From a bacterium (GTDB lineage: Bacteria > Patescibacteriota > Patescibacteriia > Patescibacteriales > GWE2-39-37), in the NCBI GenBank assembly GCA_037146995.1, contig JBAWWA010000002.1, positions 1,955-65,954 on the forward strand: a stretch of DNA of 64,000 nucleotides, read 5' to 3'. The first letter of the stretch is position 1. The number at the start of each line of letters is the position of its first letter. Of the stretch, positions 33,562 through 64,000 are shown piece after piece. Below the pieces are notes generated by a model that saw only the letters and a program-made list of their open reading frames with translations, searched no databases and was not told the origin of the DNA. Both the position numbers and the translations under genes were made by a program.

Positions 33562-34962
33562 ATGAACAATTCACCTAGAATTTATGCCTTAAAAAATTTA
33601 TCCCCAGAAGTCGCCGCAGTAACTTTTGCTAAATGTTCAAGATCGGCTGAACCATTTGACGTCATAGCTAGAGAGCTAAGCGATGAGAAATCAGCCGAAT
33701 TTAACGAAAAATGGGTGGTAAATTATGGCCATGGCTCAGTAGCTGAACATGCCTTTATGAATATTGCCATCGAAAACGTTTCACTTATTGCCGTCGAAGC
33801 AATTCAGGCAAATCGTCTGGCGTCATATACCGAAAAATCATCACGCTATCAGGTTTATACCAGAGATAGAGTTTTCGTGCCAAAGGCCCTATATTACGAT
33901 TCGCGCCTCATATCTAGTTATCTAGAATCGATAAACGCTCTATATGATCTTTATGAAAAATCAATTGAACCAATCAAAGCGGCAATCGAAAAACTATACC
34001 CGAATGACAAAAATCTAAGCGAAGCAGCATATCAAGCCAGCATTAAGTCTAAATGGATAGACGTAGTACGTTTCGCTTTACCCAATACTGCTTTAGCAAA
34101 TTTAGGCATGAGTGCCAATGCCCGCACCATGGAATATGCCATAACTAAAATGCTTTCACACCCGCTAGAAGAGGTTCGTGAAATTGGCGAATCTGTTAAG
34201 CGCGTGGCACTAGAAATCACGCCTACCCTGGTTAAATACGCTGACGCTTCAAATTACTATGCCAGAAATGAAGACTTTTTATTCAAAACTTCGCTTGACC
34301 AATTGGATGCCGTAAAGCCTAGCGACTTTAATAGAGACAATCAACTATCAGTCGATCTAATCGACTACGACCCGAATGGCGAAAACAAGGTTCTAGCGGG
34401 CATGCTTTATAAATTTAAATCAATTTCTTATCGTGAAGCTTTAGAACACGTAGAAAAAATGACTGAAGCTGATAAGGCAGAGATTTTCAAAACTATTCTT
34501 GGTGATGCCAAAAATATTTACGAGAAGCCGCCACGTGAGCTCGAATATCCATACTACACCTTCGATGTTATGCTCGATCAAGGTGCCTACTACGACCTCA
34601 AGCGCAATCGGATAATGACCCAAACTCCACAAATTTTAAGCGCTGATTATGGCTACTATACACCAAAATTATTTGATCAAGTTGGCCTAGGTAACGATTA
34701 TCGCAAAGCCATGGACCAGGCGCATGAGACAGCAAGACTTATAAGCCAATATCATCCTTACGAGGCTCAATATATTACCACTAAGGCAACGGCGCGACGT
34801 TTTGTCATGAAAATGAACCTAAGAGAAGCTTTTTATTTCATTGGACTGCGCTCACGCCAAGGCGGACACTTCACCTACCGCAAAATTGGCCAACTATTAC
34901 ATCAGCAAATCCTAAAAGTCCATCCAAACTTAGCAAAATATATACTAGTGGATAATAGTTAG
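33562..34962 (+). CDS. tandem-duplicated ThyX-like (flavin-dependent thymidylate synthase family) protein with degenerate RHR motifs
   Basis: First repeat: EAIQANRLASYTEKSSRY aligns with ThyX ELVRHRIASYSQQSQRY, and the ARFALPNTALANLGMSANARTMEYAITKM helix is ThyX-like. Second repeat has LKRNRIMTQT and a NLREAFYFIGLRSRQGGH tail. Confidence 0.6.
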   Translation: MNNSPRIYALKNLSPEVAAVTFAKCSRSAEPFDVIARELSDEKSAEFNEKWVVNYGHGSVAEHAFMNIAIENVSLIAVEAIQANRLASYTEKSSRYQVYTRDRVFVPKALYYDSRLISSYLESINALYDLYEKSIEPIKAAIEKLYPNDKNLSEAAYQASIKSKWIDVVRFALPNTALANLGMSANARTMEYAITKMLSHPLEEVREIGESVKRVALEITPTLVKYADASNYYARNEDFLFKTSLDQLDAVKPSDFNRDNQLSVDLIDYDPNGENKVLAGMLYKFKSISYREALEHVEKMTEADKAEIFKTILGDAKNIYEKPPRELEYPYYTFDVMLDQGAYYDLKRNRIMTQTPQILSADYGYYTPKLFDQVGLGNDYRKAMDQAHETARLISQYHPYEAQYITTKATARRFVMKMNLREAFYFIGLRSRQGGHFTYRKIGQLLHQQILKVHPNLAKYILVDNS

Positions 34963-43014: not shown

Positions 43015-44598
43015 CTATTGTATTTGTTCAACCGGTGTAATTTTTATTCTATCTGTATAGGAAGGTACTTTGCCAATAAATCCAGGAATAAATGTAACTT
43101 TAAAGCTAGCCACATCTGGCAAGCTCGATAGATAATTTTTTAACTGATCAGCGCTTAAACCAACCAATTTTGACTTATCAATGACTGAAGGATTCTTTGC
43201 TACAACTGTACCTGAATAGCCGATATTGACCGTTGCACTATTATTGTAAACATCATATGTGCCTAGCTCATAAGTAACTTCTTTGTCATTAAACCCTAGG
43301 AGTAGCTTATTCTCCGGCACGGCTGAGTTTAATTGCATTTCAGCTATTTTTTTGGCATCAGCTTCGTTAAAAGCAATGACAGCAACTTTTATCGTGGCGG
43401 TTACCTTGAATTTATCCATCTCTTCACCTACTTTGGCAACTGCACTAGTCACGATCGAAGCATCATCAATTTTAAATAAAACTTTTGAATACTGAGTATT
43501 ATACGTGGGAACAATTTCATTTTCAGCCTTAATTGTTACCGCCTTTTTAACAACTTCAATCGCTCCATCCAAATCAGCTTGAGTTACTGTGTGCTTGATT
43601 GTCTCCTTGTATTTTATGTCTTCAATAGCTTCTGCATAAATCTTATCCTGGATTCCCGCCCACAAGCCTGGGATATTAAGTCTAGTGCCAAGTGGTACGT
43701 TTATGGCACTGTCAGCCTTGTCAGCATAAACTTGAACTTCGACTGATCCGCCGGCTGGTACATTAACAGTATTCTTTATCCTGAGCAGTTGGTTATTGGT
43801 CGATAATAATCTGGTTGAGGCAACTAGCGGTTGATTCCTAACATAATTATTAACTAACTTGACTGTGCCCGTTACATCCTGTCCCAGAGACTCAACACCG
43901 GTAGTTGGAATTTCTTCAGTTTGATAGATTTCAACCTCCTTAACTACGCCTATAACGCTAGTTGTACTCGAGGCCACCTGGCTACCACTTACGGTCAATA
44001 CCGAGCTACCCTTTAACTCGCCCTTACTCATGACAACTGCAATATCAACTTTCACAAGTGAAAAATAAAAAATGGCTGCCAATAAAAAGCCAGTTAAAAT
44101 CACAAACGAAACTGAAATTTTTCTATAGATATTAAATGACCGGCCGTGTAAATTCTTAAAATCAATTTTCTCATCCAAGTCATACTGACGAACTTTTGAC
44201 TCAACAGCACTCGATTCATCTTTTTGACTGGCCTTTAAGCGCTCAATCGTACTTGAGACTTTACTGGTTCTATTGTCTTTTTCTAAAGCCGATTCTATTA
44301 AAACCTTTTTTGGTGCAACTTCATCCAATACATCAACTTCTTCTGAATTATCAACACTTACCTGTTGACGCAAATCAAGCATACTGCCGCTGGTTAGATT
44401 ACCATGAATTTTTTTAATCTCGATAACCTTTCTTGATGATGAAATTACCGGCTTTTTTACCTCAGCTGGTGCTTGCTTAACAATCTTTTTAGGCTTTGCT
44501 TTTGGCTTAGCCACCGCTGACCCCTTGGCAGATGTTGTTTTTTTAACCACCTTTAGTGACATATTTACTCCTTTAATAATATATCCATATAATACCAA
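43015..44598 (-). CDS. membrane-anchored hypothetical protein with Lys/Ala/Pro-rich N-terminal tail
   Basis: N-terminal KPKAKPKKIVKQAPAEVKKP low-complexity basic region. Single TM (VSFVILTGFLLAAIFYF). Large extracytoplasmic domain. No family recognised. Confidence 0.5.
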   Translation of the reverse strand: MVLYGYIIKGVNMSLKVVKKTTSAKGSAVAKPKAKPKKIVKQAPAEVKKPVISSSRKVIEIKKIHGNLTSGSMLDLRQQVSVDNSEEVDVLDEVAPKKVLIESALEKDNRTSKVSSTIERLKASQKDESSAVESKVRQYDLDEKIDFKNLHGRSFNIYRKISVSFVILTGFLLAAIFYFSLVKVDIAVVMSKGELKGSSVLTVSGSQVASSTTSVIGVVKEVEIYQTEEIPTTGVESLGQDVTGTVKLVNNYVRNQPLVASTRLLSTNNQLLRIKNTVNVPAGGSVEVQVYADKADSAINVPLGTRLNIPGLWAGIQDKIYAEAIEDIKYKETIKHTVTQADLDGAIEVVKKAVTIKAENEIVPTYNTQYSKVLFKIDDASIVTSAVAKVGEEMDKFKVTATIKVAVIAFNEADAKKIAEMQLNSAVPENKLLLGFNDKEVTYELGTYDVYNNSATVNIGYSGTVVAKNPSVIDKSKLVGLSADQLKNYLSSLPDVASFKVTFIPGFIGKVPSYTDRIKITPVEQIQ

Positions 44599-50502: not shown

Positions 50503-52302
50503 CTAAAATTTCCAAATTAACCATCCAGGTCCTGGATTTATTAATTGAACAACTGATGCCATCATCACTCCAGGCGCTGCCTCTATCATAATTTCAAACT
50601 CCGAAAACCTAGAATCTACAAATTTAGACTTTGCTGTTTTTAGTGACTTTGCCGTATCTATTCTTGCGTTATCAATGGAAAATAATTTAATGTAGTCCTG
50701 CTCACGTGAGATGCCTTGTTCATCGAAGAAAGATACATATTTCAACGCTGTTTCAATGTCTTTGGAGTCTAGCGCCTCTGCCATCTTTTCCAATGCCTCT
50801 TGAGGTGTTTTTGAATATATTCGAGTATTTTCAATTCTTTTAGAAAATTCTTCAGCTTTAATAATTTCTTTATCTACTGCTACAGACTCGATCAATGCCT
50901 CATTACAATCTGCACGATATATTGATAACACATCACTGCCATATACAATGCCAATATTATCAATAAATATCATATCACTTAAAATTACCCCCCAATTATA
51001 TAATCCTAGTTTTTTTGCAATTTTCCAACTAATGGCGCCGTTATTAGTTTCAAAGATGTAGCCGCCACCAAATAAATATCCATTCATTTTATCTTTAAAA
51101 TATACCTTTAAGTAATTATTAAGTGCATTCTCAACACTTAACATTTTCTTATCTTCGTCGAATTTTTCTACATTATTTATAATTTCAAGACCAATCCAGT
51201 TCTTTCCGCCATCGATAGTTTTCAATATTTTATGCTTATTATACATAAAGCCAACTTGACTATCTACAAAGAATATATTCTTCAATTGTGTCGTCGTACT
51301 ATATATCTCATTCCAAGACAAACCACCATCAACCGTACTCCAAATCTTATCAGACGTATCAAGACCATTATTTACTGACTCGCCCTTACCGTAAGCCCAT
51401 CCTTCATTATCGTTAATAAAAAACAAGCCATTTATTTCATGGAATATATTACTATCGTGCAATGCCCAATTATCGCCTCCATCATCGGTTTTATAAAGAA
51501 GGTCGTTATTTTTATAATTAGTACTTCCCATTATTAACCACCCTTTTTTTGAATCCAAAAAATAAAATTTTTTCACTGACATATGATTAGAAGCTGGAAG
51601 CCACATTTTTTCCACCCAAGTATTCCCACTATCATATGTTTTTAATACATATTGCCCTTCTTCTTTTGTAATTTCACCAGGTTGCCTTAAACCGCCATTA
51701 CTAACAGTAAGTGCAGAAAGCCAATTTTTTTCATCTAAGAAATGAGTCACTGGCCGTAATTCAGTGCTGCCCTTCCACTCGATTTTTGAAATATCCAACC
51801 AATTGATGCCGCCATCAATTGTTTTATGCAAACCACCTTCTTGATCTGCAGCAAAGCCAACTCTATCATTAATAAACTGAATAATTGTGTATCCTATTGG
51901 TAGGTCAATATTTTTCCAATGACTCACCTCAGTGGAGGCTGAAAGAGATGTAGTACTACAACCTAAAACTTGATTATTGATTTTATTAGTAATTGCAATT
52001 TCTTCTTTTTTATTTACACTACTATTAACATCACCAACCTGAATATTCTTATAATTATTCTTCTTGATATTTATGTAAGTATAAATACCTATAGTTGTAA
52101 AAACAAATACAATAATAACAACCAATAATACCTGCTTATTTGTTGCTGCTTTTTTATGTTTCGATGATAAATCTATTTCATTTATACATTCCTCAATTTC
52201 AGAAACAGACCAACTTTTCGACAGGTCGGCTTGCACTTCTGGATATTCTTTGCCAGATTTAAGTTGTTGATTTATAACATCTATGAGTTGTTTGTTTATC
52301 AT
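50503..52302 (-). CDS. membrane-anchored BNR/Asp-box repeat beta-propeller protein (Ycf48/sialidase-like fold)
   Basis: N-terminal TM. Six or more S/T-x-D-G-G-x-x-W Asp-box motifs (TIDGGINW, TYDSGNTW, TDDGGDNW, TVDGGLSW, TIDGGKNW, TNNGAISW). Confidence 0.6.
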   Translation of the reverse strand: MINKQLIDVINQQLKSGKEYPEVQADLSKSWSVSEIEECINEIDLSSKHKKAATNKQVLLVVIIVFVFTTIGIYTYINIKKNNYKNIQVGDVNSSVNKKEEIAITNKINNQVLGCSTTSLSASTEVSHWKNIDLPIGYTIIQFINDRVGFAADQEGGLHKTIDGGINWLDISKIEWKGSTELRPVTHFLDEKNWLSALTVSNGGLRQPGEITKEEGQYVLKTYDSGNTWVEKMWLPASNHMSVKKFYFLDSKKGWLIMGSTNYKNNDLLYKTDDGGDNWALHDSNIFHEINGLFFINDNEGWAYGKGESVNNGLDTSDKIWSTVDGGLSWNEIYSTTTQLKNIFFVDSQVGFMYNKHKILKTIDGGKNWIGLEIINNVEKFDEDKKMLSVENALNNYLKVYFKDKMNGYLFGGGYIFETNNGAISWKIAKKLGLYNWGVILSDMIFIDNIGIVYGSDVLSIYRADCNEALIESVAVDKEIIKAEEFSKRIENTRIYSKTPQEALEKMAEALDSKDIETALKYVSFFDEQGISREQDYIKLFSIDNARIDTAKSLKTAKSKFVDSRFSEFEIMIEAAPGVMMASVVQLINPGPGWLIWKF

Positions 52303-56200: not shown

Positions 56201-56374
56201 TAACTACTTGTTTATTTTCGCTCATGACAATTGGCAAAAAAATTACAGAGCCTATTAAAAGGTTCCTCGATGAATTTAGCCACAAAAGCCATGATGTCAT
56301 CAAAAAACTCCAAATAGCACCAGACGCCACCAAGAAGCATTAACATTGCCACTGCAGACATAATCGCCTCCATA

Positions 56375-57181
56375 CTAGCGCACCTCGATAGTTTTATTTA
56401 GGGCCATGGCCATTTCCTTCATGCAACGCAGGGCCATGTCAAATTGCTCCTCTGGTGTCAGATTCTTGGCCATGTTTACGGCTTTGTGATGTTCTAAGTC
56501 ATGTTGACGCCGCTTGTAGAGAGCGCACAACTGCTTGTTTTCATCCACAACACTTTTATTCAGGTCATTGTCTGCCTCGGCAATATCCCTCGGCACATGC
56601 GGCAGCCTGTCAGCTGTTTCTTGGTTATTGACCACCCAGCCATCAGGCACGAGGCGATGATTGTCAATCCTGACATTTGCCACAACGGCGTTAATGCCGA
56701 TATGACAATAATCACCAACGGTGGCTTTTTTCACCACCGCACCATGATCAAGCATACAATTACGCCCAATCGTGGAGTGATGAACAATGACATTAAAGCC
56801 GATAAAACATTTTTTACCCAGATAAGCCGGACCATGAATGGTTGCCTTGTGAGCAACTGAACAATGTTTGCCGACCCAGACGCAATACTTTTTGCCGTCG
56901 TCTCCGTCGACAAAAAGGCCTCCATGCGCATGAACCAAGGTGTGATCTTGAAAGTTGACACCCTCAGAAATTCTCACCCCACCGTAATTTTCATCGTTAA
57001 GATAGACATCTTTTACCTCGTCGATGCGAATAACCGTGTCGGGCAAAATTGTCACTCGAGGCCCGATACTGATTTGACCAATGATAATCGCACTTTCACT
57101 TACAATGGCGCTCTTATCAATGGTCGGGTTGCCAAAAAAAGAATCGTTGAAACGAAACCTACCCGGTTTTCCTGCATCCAT
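56375..57181 (-). CDS. left-handed beta-helix (hexapeptide repeat) protein, gamma-carbonic-anhydrase-like, with C-terminal alpha-helical extension
   Basis: Hexapeptide repeats throughout. HAHGG and H-x4-HG (SVAHKATIHG) match gamma-CA zinc-ligand spacing. About 80-aa charged C-terminal tail. Confidence 0.6.
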   Translation of the reverse strand: MDAGKPGRFRFNDSFFGNPTIDKSAIVSESAIIIGQISIGPRVTILPDTVIRIDEVKDVYLNDENYGGVRISEGVNFQDHTLVHAHGGLFVDGDDGKKYCVWVGKHCSVAHKATIHGPAYLGKKCFIGFNVIVHHSTIGRNCMLDHGAVVKKATVGDYCHIGINAVVANVRIDNHRLVPDGWVVNNQETADRLPHVPRDIAEADNDLNKSVVDENKQLCALYKRRQHDLEHHKAVNMAKNLTPEEQFDMALRCMKEMAMALNKTIEVR

Positions 57182-57417
57182 GTTGCTCTCCTTTTTTACT
57201 GTAATTTATTACCGTTCAAATGTGAACGTCCTACTTTTTGTAAAGATCTCCTTTTGTAACAATTTATGATTATTGCATAAATACACATTTGTGTCAATAT
57301 TAGCCACTTTTAAACAATTTAGGTTCAAAAATATCCTAATTTATACAATATTCTTCAAGATACAACTATTATATGCTACTCCCTGTAATAATTACGTCAA
57401 GTGTATGGCGCAATAAC

Positions 57418-57589: not shown

Positions 57590-57616
57590 AGCCTCAATTC
57601 GTTGAGGCTTTTTTCT
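57590..57616 (+). terminator. rho-independent terminator after the small peptide gene
   Basis: AGCCTCAA-ttcg-TTGAGGCT then TTTTTC. Confidence 0.6.
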
Positions 57617-57632
57617 TTTAAAAAAATAAAAA

Positions 57633-57660
57633 AGAATCGATTTTAGTCGATTCTTTTTTC
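57633..57660. terminator. bidirectional terminator (also ends the complex-I-like operon on the minus strand)
   Basis: AAGAATCGA-ttttag-TCGATTCTT flanked by A-run and T-run. Lies 11 nt past the stop of the NuoCD-like gene. Confidence 0.6.
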
Positions 57661-57670
57661 TAAATATATT

Positions 57671-59224
57671 TTACATGTCAGTACCGGAATAACTCAGGTT
57701 AAGCGATTTGTTGCACAGCGGAAAGTCTGGTACGATATTGCCCGGACCGATGATGCCAAAGGTGGCCCAATTACAAAATGATGGATCACGCGGAAAACAA
57801 CGCTCAATCTGGCCGTTTCTTATTACTACAGCACAGAGAACTTCACCCCGCCATGACTCGGTTGCGCCAATAGCGTAACCATCTCTCGGTGTGCAATTAA
57901 CGCTATACTCACCGGTCGGCATTTGATCAATTAAAATATTAATGAGTCGCACTGTTTCGTTTAATTCATCTAGACGCGCCGTAAATCGCGCATGAACATC
58001 ACCAGCCGTTTTTACAACCACTTTAACCGGAAATTTCGCGTAAGCAGCGTGCGGAAAATCGCGCCGAACATCACGATCAACCCCGGAACTTCTAGCTGGC
58101 AATCCCAGTGCGCCAAAGGCCTTGGCCGCTTCCAATGGCAAAATTCCAGTTGTCTGCAAACGATCCATAAAACCTTCTGAGGACAAAGCAGTCGTTGTTA
58201 TTTCCTTGATCTCGGCAAAAGCCTCATTAACAACTAGCTTGATACGAGCCAACTCGGAGGTGGTAAAGCTTTTAGAAACACCCCCTGGCAAAATCAAACC
58301 TCGCCAAAATCGATTACCAAGCACTTCCTCTGACAAACGCATTAGACGTTCTTTGACTCGAAAACCATTGGCCGCAATAAAACTAAAGCCTGTGCCCATA
58401 CCGCCAATATTAGCAATGTCGTGAACATGCATCGTCAAGCGTTCAAGTTCAGCAACTAGCGTTCTTAAAATCAAGGCCAGTTCAGGCACATTAACGTTGG
58501 CAAGAATCTCTACGGCCTGACAATAGGCCAAAGCATTGGCAGCCGCCATATCACCAGACAAGCGCTCAATAAATTTCAAACCCTCAACCGGAGTTTTGCC
58601 TTCTAAAAGCTTCTCGACGCCTTTGTGAGTAAAGAAAAGCTTGCCCTCTAAAGTAATAATACGCTCGCCTGCCACATTAAATCTAAAATGACCAGGCTCA
58701 ATAATACCCGCATGAATCGGTCCGACTGGAATTTCAAAAATCCCCTCGCCTTTGACATGGCCCATCGGATATGGCTCATTGGCATGTTCAAGTTTTTTAT
58801 TCCAAATAAAATCTTTTCTTAATGGGTGAGTAGCATTAGGAATATTTTCATGATTAACCAAACGACGCAAATCTGGATGGCCATCCGGCACCACACCGAA
58901 CATGTCATGACTATAGCGTTCATACCAATGTGCGGCCATAATCGTCGCAGTAATCGACGGATAATGAGGGTGACTAGCACTCACCTCCGCACGCAGTTCG
59001 AGCCGCTCATGACTCTCGTCTAGACTAAATACTGCATGAACTGTGTAGCATTTTTTTTCAGCCCGTTCATCGGTCACAAACATTAACGATAATGGCAGGT
59101 CATATTCATTCACCAAAGCAGTCGCTATTTTAGCTATATCATCACTGTTAACCGTAACACAATATATGTTGGCCAGGAGTTCTGCCTTAAGTTGTAATTT
59201 TGACAAAATTTCTAAAGCTTTCAT
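57671..59224 (-). CDS. fused NuoC/NuoD-like (HycE-like) large-subunit homologue lacking all [NiFe]-binding cysteines
   Basis: N-terminal 30-kDa-subunit motif HWYERYSHDMFGVVPDGHPDLRRL. Large-subunit motifs GPIHAGIIEPGHFRF. The L1 site reads ERLSGDMAAANALAY (canonical R-x-C-G-x-C). The C-terminal L2 site reads NLSYSGTDM (canonical D-P-C-x-x-C-x-x-H/R). Confidence 0.8.
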   Translation of the reverse strand: MKALEILSKLQLKAELLANIYCVTVNSDDIAKIATALVNEYDLPLSLMFVTDERAEKKCYTVHAVFSLDESHERLELRAEVSASHPHYPSITATIMAAHWYERYSHDMFGVVPDGHPDLRRLVNHENIPNATHPLRKDFIWNKKLEHANEPYPMGHVKGEGIFEIPVGPIHAGIIEPGHFRFNVAGERIITLEGKLFFTHKGVEKLLEGKTPVEGLKFIERLSGDMAAANALAYCQAVEILANVNVPELALILRTLVAELERLTMHVHDIANIGGMGTGFSFIAANGFRVKERLMRLSEEVLGNRFWRGLILPGGVSKSFTTSELARIKLVVNEAFAEIKEITTTALSSEGFMDRLQTTGILPLEAAKAFGALGLPARSSGVDRDVRRDFPHAAYAKFPVKVVVKTAGDVHARFTARLDELNETVRLINILIDQMPTGEYSVNCTPRDGYAIGATESWRGEVLCAVVIRNGQIERCFPRDPSFCNWATFGIIGPGNIVPDFPLCNKSLNLSYSGTDM

Positions 59225-59231
59225 ATATTTT

Positions 59232-60692
59232 TTAACTTAAATTTTTTATAATATCAACCACGAAGCCAGTGCCACTTGACGATGTAAACCAAACACCCAA
59301 CAAGATAACTGCAATTATATGAACCAACATGACACTGTGAGTAATATTCCAGTGCTCTCGTGTCTCATTTAAATCAGTAGTATTTGCTTTTTCCAAAATC
59401 ATACCAATTGTCGTTCTTAGCATGCCAAAGGCAATAACACCAAGGGCAATGAAAACCGCGATTGACAGATACAAATGAGCTTTGATCATTGCCGAAAAGA
59501 GCGTAAATTCACTAACAAATAATATTGACGGTGGCATTGCCACAATAAAAATTATCCCGATTAAAAACAAAGAGCTCGTATAGGGCGCATACTTTAACAA
59601 GCCGCCAACTTTAGTTGTGTCAGTTGTTTTATAGCGCAACAGTATTTCACCAGCTCCAAAAAATAATCCAGATTTTATGATTGAATGACCAATCATATGG
59701 ATAACTGCAGCCATTACGCCGATAGGCGGCAAGGCCAAGCCTAGGGCAATCAAGCCCATGTGCTCAATACTTGAATAGGCGAGCATCCTTTTGTAATTCC
59801 TTTGCACGAGCAACATAAAGGCTGGTAATACGACCGACAAGATACCGAAAAATAAAAAGAATTTACCAGTCCATTCACTCCCGCCTATGGCCTGATTAGC
59901 AATCATTTGAAAACGAATAATCGCATACAAAGCCACGTTTAACAATATGCCAGAAAACAAGGCCGAGATTGGCGATGGCGCCTTGCTGTGGGCATCTGGT
60001 AGCCACGTATGGATTGGCGCGAAACCGACTTTAGCACCAAAACCCACAAAGATAAAAACAAAAGCCCATTTTACAAGCTCCGGCGACAAGGCGCTAGTAT
60101 TCTTCAATAAATCACTGATCAAAAAACTAACTGATTGATCTGCCCCAGCCTGCGATGTATAACCGAGTAAAAGTATGCCAATCAAACCTAAAGTAATACC
60201 AGTTGAGCAAATAATAATATATTTCCAAGCAGCCTCAAGTGATGAGCGCTTGCGATAAAGACCAACCAAGAAGGTCGAAGATAAAGTTGTTGCTTCTAGA
60301 GCCAACCACATAATCAAAGTATTATTAGTGACAACGACTAAAAACATTGCCATCACGAACAAAGGTAGCAAAGTGAAATATAATTTTAGATCATTGATTT
60401 TCACCTCTCCATCCTTAAATTCATGACCAATATAGCGCACACTAACAATAGTGGCACTTAAAGATAATAAAGCGATTAGACTAGCAATCAAGGCTCCGAA
60501 TCTATCCAAATAAAACCACTCAGTAATTAAAACCTCTGTGCCAAAAAATTGTGGTGAGACGAATAACCAAATTGTCAAAGCAGAAGCGATGGATACAGCA
60601 CCAGCCGACAAACGAATGATTTTTTCGTTTTTTTGCACCACAGCAAGAATGACTGCCAAACTAAAAAGTCCAAAGATAAATAAAATATTCAT
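59232..60692 (-). CDS. NuoN/NuoM/MrpD-family antiporter-like membrane subunit
   Basis: 14 TM helices. Hallmark ...GFAPIHTWLPDAHSKAPSPISAL. Confidence 0.85.
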   Translation of the reverse strand: MNILFIFGLFSLAVILAVVQKNEKIIRLSAGAVSIASALTIWLFVSPQFFGTEVLITEWFYLDRFGALIASLIALLSLSATIVSVRYIGHEFKDGEVKINDLKLYFTLLPLFVMAMFLVVVTNNTLIMWLALEATTLSSTFLVGLYRKRSSLEAAWKYIIICSTGITLGLIGILLLGYTSQAGADQSVSFLISDLLKNTSALSPELVKWAFVFIFVGFGAKVGFAPIHTWLPDAHSKAPSPISALFSGILLNVALYAIIRFQMIANQAIGGSEWTGKFFLFFGILSVVLPAFMLLVQRNYKRMLAYSSIEHMGLIALGLALPPIGVMAAVIHMIGHSIIKSGLFFGAGEILLRYKTTDTTKVGGLLKYAPYTSSLFLIGIIFIVAMPPSILFVSEFTLFSAMIKAHLYLSIAVFIALGVIAFGMLRTTIGMILEKANTTDLNETREHWNITHSVMLVHIIAVILLGVWFTSSSGTGFVVDIIKNLS

Positions 60693-60693
60693 A

Positions 60694-62289
60694 TTATTCG
60701 GTTAAATTTCTCAATTCCTCGGTATCCACTGAACCGTAAAAATACTTAATTCGTGAACCAAGAAGCGAAAGAATTAAAGCTGTTAAAGCGGTGACGGTAA
60801 AAACACCCATCTCAATTATTAACGGCAATGACTTGACTGTCACAAGCGTAAATATGGCGATACCATTTTCAACAACAAGCAGACCGATAATTTGAGAAAA
60901 AACATTTCTATGGACAATCATAGTGGCAAGACCCAAAACTAGCAGCCCAACTGAAGCAAACAATAAACTACTCCACTCAACCAAGGCAAAAATTGGCGTC
61001 TTTTGAACAATAAAAAATACAAAGACTAAAAGTAGCGCTGCCAAAAGATAGCTTGAAGCCGGTCTCAAGAAAGACTGTAAATTCGCCGTATGTCGCTGTT
61101 GTTTTTCCATTATCTTAATAACGTATGGCACTAACAGGACTTTTACGGCGATCGTTACAACAGCGAAAATCAATAAATGAGTCTGCTCTTCTGGGGCCAT
61201 TAAGGCAAGACTATAGGCAATGCCTGCAATCATTAATGATGAGGCTGCATAATATCTAAGTATTGATTTCAATCTTAACCGACCGAAGAGTAACACCACA
61301 AAGAAAACCGACATAGCAGCAAAGACAGTATAATATTTTATATCAGGTCCGGTAAGTTTGACATATACAGCCACCATCATGCCAAAAAAAGCCGTAAAAA
61401 AAGCCAAGGATAAATATTCAGGCATCCTATAAAACCTCATTTTAACTATGGTCATTTCTAACCAACCCAGCAAGACGGCAACCATAGAAACCTTAAGGAT
61501 TGCCAAAAGTATAGCCAAAATACCACCACCGACACTAAGACTAAAAATCGTTACAGGCGGAAAAACAAAATTCGCAATTAAAATTGAAAAGGCTGCTAAT
61601 TTTATTGCCGAAGCGTATTCTAGCAAGGCCAAATAGCGACCAGAATATTCAAGAATCATGGCCTCATGAACCATAGTTAACTCAAGATGCGTTGCCGGAT
61701 TATCAACAGGATAACGTGCATTTTCAGCCAGTGAGACCAAGACAAAGGCAATCATTAAAATTATCAAATGCGGGGCACTAAAAATTAAAGACTGCGCAAA
61801 CATACCATCAAGCTGAAAAGAGCCTGTCACAAAAGCTAAAGCACCAAATATCAAAATAACAGTTGGCTCAATCAACGAGGCCAGAGTCATTTCACGCGAT
61901 GAGCCCATGCCCCCAAAAGCGCTAGCGGAATCTAGACCGCCCAAAACCAAAAAGATCGAGCCAACAATCATAAAGGCTGCTACCACCAAAAAATCACTAG
62001 CGAAAGCCAAGGCACCACCACTAAAAACTAAGGGCAATATAAAAGCCAAGGCTATTGTCGAGGCTAGTACCACAAAAGGTACGGCCCTAAAAACCCAAGA
62101 AGTGGATTTTGAGATAACCATTTCTTTCTTGAGTAAAGTCAAGATCGTATAATAGGGCAAAAATGGCGAAGCTCCGCGTCTGCCCTGCAATCGAGCCTTG
62201 GTAAACCTAACCAGACCGACAGAAAATGGTGCTACCAACAATATGGTCAGGCCTTGCAATATTGTAGCTAAAATTTGAAATGAGTTCAT
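60694..62289 (-). CDS. NuoH/HycD-like membrane subunit fused to a C-terminal ~200-aa polytopic extension (HyfE/NuoK-like?)
   Basis: N-terminal LLVAPFSVGLVRFTKARLQGRRGASPFLPYYTIL matches the NuoH/HycD signature. Total 531 aa versus about 310-330 for NuoH. C-terminal third has about 6 extra TM helices. Confidence 0.7.
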   Translation of the reverse strand: MNSFQILATILQGLTILLVAPFSVGLVRFTKARLQGRRGASPFLPYYTILTLLKKEMVISKSTSWVFRAVPFVVLASTIALAFILPLVFSGGALAFASDFLVVAAFMIVGSIFLVLGGLDSASAFGGMGSSREMTLASLIEPTVILIFGALAFVTGSFQLDGMFAQSLIFSAPHLIILMIAFVLVSLAENARYPVDNPATHLELTMVHEAMILEYSGRYLALLEYASAIKLAAFSILIANFVFPPVTIFSLSVGGGILAILLAILKVSMVAVLLGWLEMTIVKMRFYRMPEYLSLAFFTAFFGMMVAVYVKLTGPDIKYYTVFAAMSVFFVVLLFGRLRLKSILRYYAASSLMIAGIAYSLALMAPEEQTHLLIFAVVTIAVKVLLVPYVIKIMEKQQRHTANLQSFLRPASSYLLAALLLVFVFFIVQKTPIFALVEWSSLLFASVGLLVLGLATMIVHRNVFSQIIGLLVVENGIAIFTLVTVKSLPLIIEMGVFTVTALTALILSLLGSRIKYFYGSVDTEELRNLTE

Positions 62290-64000
62290 AAAGCGATACT
62301 TAAAGCAACAATTAAGGTTGCCAATAACAAAAGTAAATAATACTGAATCCTGCCGCTTTGGATTAATTTAACTCTAAGCGATAAAAAATTCATAAATTTC
62401 TCAATGGGCAGATACACGCTACTCTTCCAGGCAGAACTAATTAAAAGCGAAAATGAATAATTACGAATCCAGGGATTAGTGACCACAACTGGCTCGCTAG
62501 TAATTAATTTGTTTCTGCCAATTAAATTGAGGAAAAAAAATCTGATCGGCGCCGAAAAAGCGGCTGCTGTATATTCCATAGTTGAATTTATCGGCTGTCC
62601 GCAATCCCAGGTATGATATGAACGCTCTTTTTTATTTAGCGCAAAGAAGTAATTCAAAAGATAGGCAAATAGTAAAAAACCTAAAACGACGGACAATAGT
62701 TGCATAGATGATATAGAGCCAATGGCATTTTCCGTAATCAATTCAGAACTATTTAATACATTGGAAATAATGCTAATAAAATAATTTGCAAAAATACCAA
62801 TACTTAAAACACCAAGTGCTAATCCGGCAATCGGCCAAACTAAAAGTCCATCACCTAACTCAGACTTTATTTCATGCTCACGATACCTTGGCAAGCCCAG
62901 CATAGAAATAGCAAAAATCTTGATCATCGCAAAAACAGCTAAACCCCCGATCAAACCGATTACTGATAAAATTAGAACCACAATTGGCAATAGCATGCCA
63001 CCGGCTTGAGACATTAAACTAATAGCCACATGAATCAAGCCCCATTCGCCATAAAAAGTACCGAACGGCGGAATTGGTAACGAACCCATAATAACCAGTA
63101 AAAAGAAAAAAGAAAATAAAGGTAAAGACTTCGCAAAGCCACCCATAAGCTCTAGACTGCGAGAATGGACACGACTAATGACTAAACCACTCGAAAGGAA
63201 TAGGGCCGTCTTAAAGAAGGCATGACTCAAACTATGAATGATAGCAAAAACAATCAAGGGAATAAAATATCTCATTAAATTTGAATGAGCATAGTTTGCT
63301 GTAATATAAATTGCCAAGCCAATAACAGAAAATATAATTCCCATATTTTCAATACTGCTATAGGCAAAAGCCTTTTTCATGTCAGTTTCAATTGCCGCAT
63401 AAAGTGCGCCGACAACACCGGACACAAGCCCAAGAATGATCACCAAGGTGCCAGCCCAGGTTGGCATGTAGGCAAAATTCAAGACCACCATCAAGAAACC
63501 ATAAATCGCCACTTTTAACATCAAGCCAGACATAAGAGCGGAAATATTGCTTGGAGCCTGTGGATGTGCTTCTGGCAACCAAACATGGAGTGGAACAAGT
63601 CCAGCCTTTGAACCAAATCCAAATAAAAACAAACAAAAGGCAGCAGTAGCCAAAGTTGGCGTCAACTGCTGTGTCACTTCTTGAATCATTGATAAATCAA
63701 AAAACAAGGAGCCATTTCCCAATATTAAAAAACCACCTAATATCGCCGAAGCTCCGAGGTGGGTCATAATGAAATACAAGAATGCTGCGTTGAAAGACTC
63801 TTTAGTCTTGTCTGACAATACCAAAAAGAAAGAACTTAGAGACATTACCTCCCAAAAAAACAAGAAAGTAAATGAGTTGTTGGCAAGCAATACTGCCTGC
63901 ATACCAAAAACAAACAATCCCATTAAAAATTGGGTTGTGTATTTGTTATAAGTTTTTTGATACAGATCAAGATATCTAACACTATAAACGCCAACCAAAG
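62286..64000 (-). CDS. NuoL/MrpA/HycC-family antiporter-like subunit (N-terminus lies beyond window end)
   Basis: Hallmark GLVPLHVWLPEAHPQAPSNISAL. ATGA overlap with the next gene. ORF runs to the window edge. Confidence 0.8.
   Translation of the reverse strand, partial: LVGVYSVRYLDLYQKTYNKYTTQFLMGLFVFGMQAVLLANNSFTFLFFWEVMSLSSFFLVLSDKTKESFNAAFLYFIMTHLGASAILGGFLILGNGSLFFDLSMIQEVTQQLTPTLATAAFCLFLFGFGSKAGLVPLHVWLPEAHPQAPSNISALMSGLMLKVAIYGFLMVVLNFAYMPTWAGTLVIILGLVSGVVGALYAAIETDMKKAFAYSSIENMGIIFSVIGLAIYITANYAHSNLMRYFIPLIVFAIIHSLSHAFFKTALFLSSGLVISRVHSRSLELMGGFAKSLPLFSFFFLLVIMGSLPIPPFGTFYGEWGLIHVAISLMSQAGGMLLPIVVLILSVIGLIGGLAVFAMIKIFAISMLGLPRYREHEIKSELGDGLLVWPIAGLALGVLSIGIFANYFISIISNVLNSSELITENAIGSISSMQLLSVVLGFLLFAYLLNYFFALNKKERSYHTWDCGQPINSTMEYTAAAFSAPIRFFFLNLIGRNKLITSEPVVVTNPWIRNYSFSLLISSAWKSSVYLPIEKFMNFLSLRVKLIQSGRIQYYLLLLLATLIVALSIAL

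Follow-up and report, generated by a model that had tools for sequence, protein, structure and literature searches.

The 64,000-nucleotide stretch of bacterial DNA examined here, which we refer to as the window, carries on its minus strand (57671..59224) an intact open reading frame (ORF) of 517 amino acids (aa) in which a NuoC-like domain is fused to a HycE/HyfG-like large-subunit domain devoid of [NiFe] ligands. This gene encodes EhrL, the large subunit of the energy-converting-hydrogenase-related (Ehr) membrane complex of the Candidate Phyla Radiation (CPR, or Patescibacteria). The initial annotation had placed it at the right coordinates but had missed that it lies on the minus strand, and its reading of the protein, although sound, overlooked both the prior publication of such subunits and the gene context.

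Results

On the same strand and directly upstream of EhrL lie three genes for membrane subunits. They encode a HyfF/NuoM-like antiporter-like subunit of 486 aa (59232..60692; Pfam Proton_antipo_M, NCBIfam 'hydrogenase 4 subunit F' and alignment to MbhH), a 531-aa fusion of a NuoH/HyfC-like with a HyfE-like (NuoK-type) protein (60694..62289; Pfam NADHdh and Oxidored_q2, with the NCBIfam 'hydrogenase 4 membrane subunit' model covering residues 370-529), and a HyfB/NuoL-like antiporter-like subunit (62286..64000) whose 5' end is cut by the window edge. Downstream, likewise on the minus strand, a gene at 56375..57181 encodes a 268-aa Cam/CcmM-type gamma-carbonic anhydrase, assigned by the NCBIfam CcmM and carbonic-anhydrase models and by a hidden Markov model (HMM) scan. 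The full locus, L001, reads atpD, atpC, a GGDEF protein, X334 (334 aa), a NuoB-like subunit (177 aa), the HyfB-like subunit (661 aa), the NuoH+HyfE fusion, the HyfF-like subunit, EhrL, a 490-bp gap, the gamma-carbonic anhydrase, GroES and GroEL; atpD/atpC, X334 with its predicted fold of the beta-carbonic-anhydrase (CA) kind, and the NuoB-like gene are thus found upstream of the HyfB-like gene, beyond the window edge.

EhrL is recognised by Pfam through Complex1_30kDa (residues 23-143) and Complex1_49kDa, with a sub-threshold match to NiFeSe_Hases, and its closest solved structure is Escherichia coli HycE (7z0s_E, E = 4e-66, residues 24-516 aligned), followed by Aquifex NuoCD and Pyrococcus MbhL. 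The Pfam matches, the HycE alignment and the conservation of the protein bear out the earlier statement that neither the NuoC-like domain nor the hydrogenase-type 'EPGHFRF' core is disrupted. They equally uphold the central claim of the initial annotation, namely that both CxxC motifs have been replaced, by Ser/Met at L1 and by Ser/Gly at L2. The L1-equivalent motif, E220-N230 (58535..58567, minus strand), reads ERLSGDMAAAN where HycE has DRVCGICGFAH, as established by alignment to HycE and MbhL and by column counts; the L2-equivalent motif, N509-D516 (57677..57700, minus strand), reads NLSYSGTD where HycE has DPCYSCTD, by HycE alignment and column counts. Both alignments are gap-free and lie within well-conserved blocks, so that S223 and M226 occupy the L1 Cys columns, and S511 and G514 the L2 Cys columns, of the four [NiFe] ligands that are all Cys in HycE. 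Neither the RxCGxC motif with its two Cys that characterises L1 of group 4 [NiFe]-hydrogenases (here ERLSGDM) nor DPCxxC followed by a cleaved C-terminal peptide is found; EhrL terminates a single residue past the L2 motif (NLSYSGTDM-stop), and the C-terminal maturation peptide is therefore absent.

These data bear directly on the possibility that misalignment concealed the ligands of what is in truth a [NiFe] hydrogenase. Overall homology to HycE, and nothing beyond it, speaks for that explanation, while the gap-free alignment of both motifs with HycE and MbhL, the lack of a maturation peptide and a small subunit without a cluster (see below) all contradict it; moreover, among the eight Cys of the EhrL translation there is no CxxC arrangement anywhere, and hence no alignment offset, an error that the initial annotation had itself envisaged, could restore the ligands. 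We regard this alternative as refuted by the HycE alignment and its residual probability as negligible. The identical EhrL protein is recorded on three contigs, two of which were fetched, from separate assemblies (ENA, Logan), which rules out an assembly artefact.

The earlier remark that NuoD carries a different substitution pattern is also borne out, since Aquifex NuoD2 RMDYIS pairs with EhrL RLSGDM. In the alignment to Aquifex NuoD2, EhrL G224 falls in the column of the NuoD quinone-site Tyr and I175 in that of the His of the beta1-beta2 loop, residues that we take to be Tyr87 and His38 of Thermus thermophilus Nqo4. NCBIfam NuoD models score far under their cut-offs on EhrL. Judging from the differing quinone-site His/Tyr columns and the absence of N2 ligands in the NuoB-like partner, EhrL is no complex I subunit.

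Conservation of EhrL was assessed in 81 homologues, comprising 80 from species-representative genomes and the window locus. The ligand columns hold Ser in 79/81, Met, Ala or Ser, Ser in 78/81 and Gly in 79/81, whereas the neighbouring G224, D225, Y512, S513 and D516 are conserved at 95-99% (D225 in 80 of the 81). Altogether, 150 of the 517 positions are at least 95% conserved at 51-72% identity to the query, across CPR lineages and Acidobacteriota. From this near-invariance, the replacement motif E-R-x-S-G-D ... N-L-S-Y-S-G-T-D is a fixed derived site under purifying selection and not a product of decay, and the former metal pocket is a strictly conserved polar Ser/Asp/Ser/Gly pocket. The loss of all catalytic ligands might in itself suggest that a hydrogenase operon is in decay and survives here as a relic or pseudogene without function; this explanation is effectively refuted, and in our judgement highly improbable, given intact ORFs, more than 7000 homologues, an invariant gene order, and replacement residues that hardly vary among CPR and Acidobacteriota sequences whose overall identity is 55-70%.

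A wider survey took the best 150 representatives of 50%-identity clusters drawn from 1.8 billion proteins. About 100 of these nearest representatives share the SGD ... SY[SA]G-type signature and 26 are genuine CxxC/CxxC hydrogenases, at 38-46% identity to EhrL. The nearest homologues are named Falkowbacteria, Moranbacteria, Uhrbacteria and Parcubacteria, and the source organism is a CPR/Patescibacteria bacterium. Ehr complexes, exemplified by EhrA-1/EhrC/EhrL/EhrS of Geobacter sulfurreducens (GSU0739-45), were reportedly defined by Coppi in 2005 and by Marreiros et al. in 2013. Group 4 large-subunit homology without the ligands, together with co-encoded NuoB-, NuoH- and antiporter-like (NuoL/M/N-like) subunits and the common SGD...SYSG signature, is what the present locus shares with them. 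By the published definition, Ehr proteins are relatives of group 4 (4f) hydrogenases that lack the CxxC motifs (PMC6349859, PMC10284858), and in published trees CPR sequences fall within an Ehr subclade, described by Jaffe et al. (2020) as a monophyletic CPR clade without metal-binding cysteines (PMC7304191). The Ehr-type assignment of the initial annotation is accordingly well founded, and we are highly confident that EhrL is a non-hydrogenase, cofactor-less Ehr subunit; a Cys-less CPR Ehr large subunit is already published, however, and on its own is ordinary for specialists.

The cofactor-less five-gene Ehr operon also occurs in true Acidobacteriota/Vicinamibacterales (L049, L051-L053, L055-L058 and L060-L062, on contigs of up to 5.3 Mb), where EhrL is 55-61% identical to the window protein, which implies lateral transfer between these bacteria and CPR. 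Several metagenome-assembled genomes titled 'uncultured Gammaproteobacteria' carry CPR-type Ehr loci as well (L003, L028, L043, L046, L048, L050, L054, L064); the GroEL of L003 is 81% identical to that of the window, and these labels look wrong.

The remaining subunits carry the loss of cofactors further. The five-gene core order (NuoB-, HyfB-, NuoH+HyfE- and HyfF-like genes, EhrL) is invariant in the 81 loci wherever the contig covers it. The NuoB-like subunit aligns with MbhJ, its best match, and with HycG and NuoB, and presents N, E, G and D at the four positions of the [4Fe-4S] Cys; these replacements recur in 69/69 homologues, the fourth residue being D in 62 of them. No ferredoxin-like gene (HycF/NuoI, Fer4) occurs in the Ehr operon, as judged from L001 and the gene order of the 81 loci, so neither a small subunit with the proximal [4Fe-4S] cluster nor the ferredoxin-like subunit typical of group 4 is found here. 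Two other sampled Ehr clades, in contrast, keep the Hyf order with a Fer4 or Fer4+Oxidored_q6 gene directly 3' of EhrL; the CPR complex differs from them in having the NuoB-like gene first, in the loss of the [4Fe-4S] ligands and in lacking the ferredoxin-like subunit. In a scan of the ORFs of the window, no hyp/hycI maturation genes appear among the best 25 of 53 families. Conversely, the HyfF-like subunit, whose best solved match is MbhH, retains in alignment to it the antiporter-type Glu of transmembrane helix (TM) 5, the Lys of TM7, the Lys of HxxxK and the Glu of TM12, and looks competent for ion translocation.

Taken at the level of sequence, the CPR Ehr subtype has lost all its recognisable redox-cofactor sites, but the peripheral arm keeps its scaffold and the HyfF-like subunit its channel residues. 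With no [NiFe] Cys, no [4Fe-4S] Cys and no ferredoxin-like subunit, the complex can be neither a hydrogenase nor an electron-transfer enzyme. One could nevertheless imagine that it still acts as a redox enzyme: its arm would bind an organic cofactor or one with ligands other than cysteine, or would receive a soluble oxidoreductase encoded elsewhere, and would in this way drive ion pumping; such roles have been proposed for other Ehr complexes (PMC6349859, PMC7894505), e.g. formate dehydrogenase-Ehr in Margulisbacteria, and a ligand of some kind could bind in the conserved polar pocket (S223, D225, S511). Besides the missing iron-sulphur (FeS) ligands of the NuoB-like subunit and the missing Fer4 subunit, what counts against this explanation is that none of the 81 loci in the first set has a NuoE/F/G or FdhA gene beside the core, that the NuoD quinone-site His/Tyr columns are Ile/Gly in EhrL, and that electrons would have no route from a donor to the EhrL pocket. 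To our knowledge, CPR bacteria generally lack quinones and electron-transport chains, and we consider a redox role improbable.

As regards the fused subunit, NuoH- and HyfE-like parts form one 531-aa ORF in the window, as they do in Moranbacteria-like loci. The tblastn match spans the NuoH part alone and is followed by a gap in loci of the Uhrbacteria-like type and of Acidobacteriota, suggesting separate NuoH and HyfE genes there.

Beside this core we find two kinds of neighbours, ATP synthase genes and carbonic anhydrases. Clustering of the flanking ORFs places atpA/G/D/C immediately upstream of the Ehr core in some 35 CPR loci, the usual arrangement in CPR genomes, and in L083 the whole atpIBEFHAGDC operon precedes it. 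The CA-fold neighbours fall into five families, denoted c4, c12, c13, X334 and gamma-CA. Models of these families, scanned against all six-frame ORFs, match in 43 of the 81 loci, at one or both ends of the core; every match lies at most 900 bp from a core end, and there is none elsewhere in the loci of about 20 kb. If Acidobacteriota are set aside and each flank must span at least 1.5 kb, a CA-fold gene adjoins the core in 38 of 50 loci. As the models derive from these same flanks, the scan was repeated on 80 metagenome loci, from which 31 duplicates of the first set were removed. This held-out set yielded 13 new loci with a CA-fold gene, all within 431 bp of the core; among new loci with both flanks covered and at least 58% identity, the gene is present in 6/6, and the six held-out loci without it, at 37-56% identity, belong by that identity to other clades. 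Throughout the 81 loci no fusion of a CA gene to NuoB was found, every CA-fold ORF ending more than 100 bp before the NuoB-like gene.

The window gamma-CA matches Cam structures at E ~1e-23, as does its family, and, weakly (E ~1e-7), the gamma-CA chains of mitochondrial complex I. It carries the R-x-D-E and Q-D motifs and the three zinc-ligand His (IRIDE, NFQDHTLVHA and VAHKATIHGP, compared with the Cam motifs), the block with Q-D and the first His being assigned by inspection, as HMMER places its gaps differently from the motif match. On these grounds it qualifies as a putative gamma-class carbonic anhydrase of the Cam/CcmM type. Its N-terminus is not signal-peptide-like, and the same is true of the one representative inspected per family, so the CA-fold proteins are probably cytoplasmic. 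A C-terminal extension of about 45 aa (residues ~225-268) on the window gamma-CA is absent from Cam; of the four other Ehr-adjacent gamma-CAs, three lack it (201-204 aa) and the fourth, in L022, has 250 aa.

The other four families can be assigned to the beta-class carbonic anhydrase fold. Proteins of c4 (~340 aa) match CsoSCA structures as a profile at E = 1e-13, a profile being needed because a single c4 sequence gave no match in the PDB; they have an invariant C-x-D-x-R, H and C, and 7 of 12 members pass Pfam CsoSCA_cat. Those of c12 (~310 aa) match Pfam Pro_CA_2 at 61 bits, and single sequences of c13, X334 and the further flanking family c31 gave no significant Pfam match. Alignments by hhalign of the small flanking families link c13 to c31 (92%) and c12 weakly to c13, and are too shallow to unite the beta-CA-like families. 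X334, at L001 3390-4394, is the next gene upstream from the NuoB-like one and falls slightly beyond the window edge. It belongs to a small family without a Pfam match and with nine database homologues; relatives are P0271-P0279, L083 10001-11218 and L085 4429-5229. The motifs CSDGR and HxxCGAA are invariant in this family, for which a pseudo-dimeric fold of the beta-CA/CsoSCA kind is predicted with confidence. An alternative identity for X334 as an alcohol dehydrogenase, suggested by weak PDB sequence matches on a GHExxG-like motif, was judged spurious after a fold search.

The class of carbonic anhydrase does not follow Ehr phylogeny. Loci L016 and L019, whose EhrL proteins are 99% identical, carry a Pro_CA_2-like and a CsoSCA-like gene respectively, both downstream; L011 and L013, at 90% EhrL identity, carry a CsoSCA-like gene and a gamma-CA; and L083 has the layout of the window (atp operon, X334-like gene, core, CA, GroES/EL) but with a CsoSCA-like gene at the position of the gamma-CA. 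This repeated replacement of one class by another, unrelated one at a single position constitutes the strongest evidence that a carbonic anhydrase is selected there.

In the 490-bp gap of the window, a terminator-like hairpin stands directly 3' of the EhrL stop codon (57628..57659, minus strand) and a second one at 57590-57609, and a promoter-like site, TTGACA-17-AATAAT with TG (57269..57297, minus strand), precedes the gamma-CA gene, which has a good ribosome-binding site. Rfam scans of the gap at gathering thresholds and by E-value gave only sub-threshold matches to terminator hairpins.

Some further neighbours recur around the block. A DUF4349 membrane protein of about 320 aa is encoded 3' of the Ehr/CA block in 13 loci (within L005-L022) and also 3' of the X334-like gene in L085, which has no Ehr genes, and may share a functional neighbourhood. 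The gene for a GGDEF diguanylate cyclase (L001 2313-3383) is inserted between atpC and the X334/Ehr block, with weakly similar GGDEF-type genes (26-32% identity) at varying positions in L005, L007, L053 and L080. A small ORF after the CA gene was considered as a conserved partner and dismissed, as the window copy (56212-56373) and that of L083 (20090-20293) are not similar.

Discussion

The complex encoded at this locus may be a redox-independent machine for the translocation of protons (or ions) that shares a proton circuit with the F-type ATPase encoded just upstream and works with the cytoplasmic zinc carbonic anhydrase encoded at its flank. The membrane proton gradient would then be linked to the reaction CO2 + H2O <-> HCO3- + H+, after the manner of DAB, which is driven by the proton-motive force (PMF), or of NDH-1MS, with EhrL and the NuoB-like subunit together forming an arm for coupling or docking that has no redox role. 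Possible directions include bicarbonate accumulation, control of cytoplasmic pH where a fermenter relies on ATP hydrolysis to energise its membrane, and energy conservation from CO2/bicarbonate disequilibrium. The c-subunit of the ATPase in the relative L083 lacks the Q/S/T motif of sodium-dependent c-subunits, which makes protons a more likely coupling ion than sodium. In the ancestral hyf order a ferredoxin-like gene follows the large subunit, and in many loci it is a CA gene that occupies this slot, which suggests that the carbonic anhydrase may have replaced the electron-input module. For the reading as a whole, a redox-dead proton-translocating Ehr module working with CO2/bicarbonate interconversion, we see the balance as even; its component that the gene neighbourhood suggests, the coupling to carbonic anhydrase as such, is a tentative proposal that we place somewhat under that balance.

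A number of observations weigh against this proposal. The interchangeability of the CA classes makes it unlikely that these proteins dock as closely co-evolved subunits in the way of DabA or CupA, and coupling may instead run via substrate or product (H+, HCO3-) or via co-regulation. The hairpins after EhrL and the promoter-like site make it probable that the window gamma-CA forms a transcription unit of its own. No adjacent CA-fold gene was found in any of nine well-covered Acidobacteriota loci that encode the same cofactor-less complex, nor in 12 of the 50 well-covered CPR loci; the Acidobacteriota loci have no conserved partner genes, their flanks consisting of unrelated housekeeping genes without an adjacent atp operon. 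The X334 family is always found directly 3' of atpC, and one such locus has no Ehr genes, and the carbonic-anhydrase activity of c13, with Asp instead of Arg in CxDxR, is uncertain. The family models were built from the flanking ORFs of the first locus set, a circularity that the held-out set offsets in part. Nor is it obvious that CPR bacteria would have much use for a carbon-concentrating mechanism, and it is from gene adjacency that physical contact between any carbonic anhydrase and the Ehr complex would have to be argued.

Several of these same observations would be accommodated by the main rival explanation, in which the complex is a stand-alone Mrp-like cation/proton antiporter or gradient converter that does no more than exchange or move ions (H+/Na+) in support of the F-ATPase of a fermenter, with the carbonic anhydrases as neighbours through common acid-base regulation. 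Two antiporter-like subunits with intact Glu/Lys, the synteny with the atp operon, the absence of redox cofactors, the interchangeable CA classes, the promoter-like site of the window gamma-CA and the Acidobacteriota complexes without an adjacent CA would all agree with it. Like the Mrp Na+/H+ antiporter and the Pyrococcus MBH and MBS complexes (6CFW, 6U8Y), the Ehr complex has antiporter-like subunits with conserved Glu/Lys. However, Mrp is a seven-gene system (MrpA-G) without a NuoB/C/D/H-like arm, and of its components only antiporter-like and NuoK-like (HyfE) equivalents are present here, MrpE/F/G being absent from the gene order; a NuoB/C/D-like peripheral arm and a NuoH-like subunit would be needless for a plain antiporter and yet are under very strong purifying selection. 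Furthermore, loose co-regulation alone explains poorly the repeated independent gain of five CA-fold families at one spot. For these reasons we hold a stand-alone antiporter to be rather unlikely, albeit the most serious competitor. MBH, for its part, retains the [NiFe] site and the FeS clusters, and MBS the FeS clusters, whereas the CPR complex retains none.

Comparison with other known systems further delimits the proposed link between Ehr and CO2 chemistry. With formate hydrogenlyase and hydrogenase 4 of E. coli (HycE, HyfG; 7Z0S) the complex shares the fusion of NuoC to the large subunit and the Hyf-like membrane subunits (HyfB, C, E, F), but it lacks the [NiFe] site, the maturation peptide, the FeS cluster of the small subunit, the HycF/HyfH/HyfA ferredoxins and a formate dehydrogenase partner. 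Among Ehr complexes, it is set apart by its flanking CA-fold genes and atp operon. The closest functional analogy is with DAB (DabA/DabB) and Staphylococcus aureus MpsAB, in which the gene for a cytoplasmic beta-CA-fold protein likewise stands beside that for an antiporter-like channel, with no redox input; in DAB2, a beta-CA-fold subunit sits on a NuoL-like proton channel, is driven by the PMF and is inactive without membrane potential (PMC13144422). Unlike DabA, a specialised subunit with a transmembrane finger, the Ehr-adjacent carbonic anhydrases look ordinary, soluble and interchangeable, and where DAB has a single NuoL-like protein, the membrane part here is a Hyf-like module of five proteins that bears a peripheral arm. 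Pfam returned no DabA match (PF10070) in the representatives of the flanking families or in the c4 family.

In cyanobacteria, NDH-1MS/NDH-1(3,4) with CupA/CupB has been proposed to remove the proton from zinc-catalysed CO2 hydration (PMC6981117). That complex is driven by redox chemistry, from ferredoxin to plastoquinone, through a full FeS chain, neither of which the CPR Ehr complex has, and one representative each of c4, c12, c13, c31 and X334 gave no Pfam match to a CupA-type family. The CPR Ehr complex belongs to neither the DAB nor the NDH-1MS family, the likeness to DAB being functional only. A further parallel is offered by plant and protist mitochondrial complex I (7AQQ, 6X89), where gamma-CA-family proteins are also associated with an enzyme of the complex I family; there they are integral structural subunits of a redox-active complex, whereas here the association is known from gene adjacency alone. 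That the CPR Ehr complex is a third independently evolved energy-coupled carbonic anhydrase system, after NDH-1MS and DAB/MpsAB, is a more speculative suggestion, which we put forward with appreciable doubt.

Should the proposed link hold, a Hyf-type module without hydrogenase or FeS chemistry would use or generate the gradient that it shares with the F-ATPase together with a recruited generic carbonic anhydrase. An Ehr complex would thereby be given a function for the first time, and ultrasmall bacteria without respiration would prove to have a new device for bioenergetics or acid-base balance; the link would account for the presence of a complex-I-like machine in fermentative CPR bacteria that lack a respiratory chain, and it would bring to three the routes along which the complex I family has been adapted to CO2 chemistry. 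The function of Ehr is still called unknown in papers up to 2023 (PMC10284858), so that the role of the family has stayed open for two decades, since its naming. Within it the CPR clade is an extreme case, all redox sites being lost while both arms are under strong selection, and the loss of FeS sites, the atp synteny and the CA neighbours together furnish a functional hypothesis that is concrete and testable, the first of its kind for this subtype, and that could be examined cheaply with assays already established for DAB. Within a literature search of incomplete coverage, we found no prior report of complete FeS-site loss in the CPR Ehr clade, of synteny between the CPR Ehr core and the atp operon, of Ehr, CPR or hydrogenase-like complexes associated with carbonic anhydrase, or of CA neighbours of Ehr that swap class.

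Additional observations

Elsewhere in the window, two large ORFs on the minus strand have no Pfam family, one of 527 aa at 43015-44598 and one of 599 aa at 50503-52302, the latter with a faint NCBIfam match to a surface-associated protein and nothing else. On the plus strand, a 466-aa ORF at 33562-34962 shows two separate ThyX (Thy1) domain matches and looks like a tandem-duplicated flavin-dependent thymidylate synthase.

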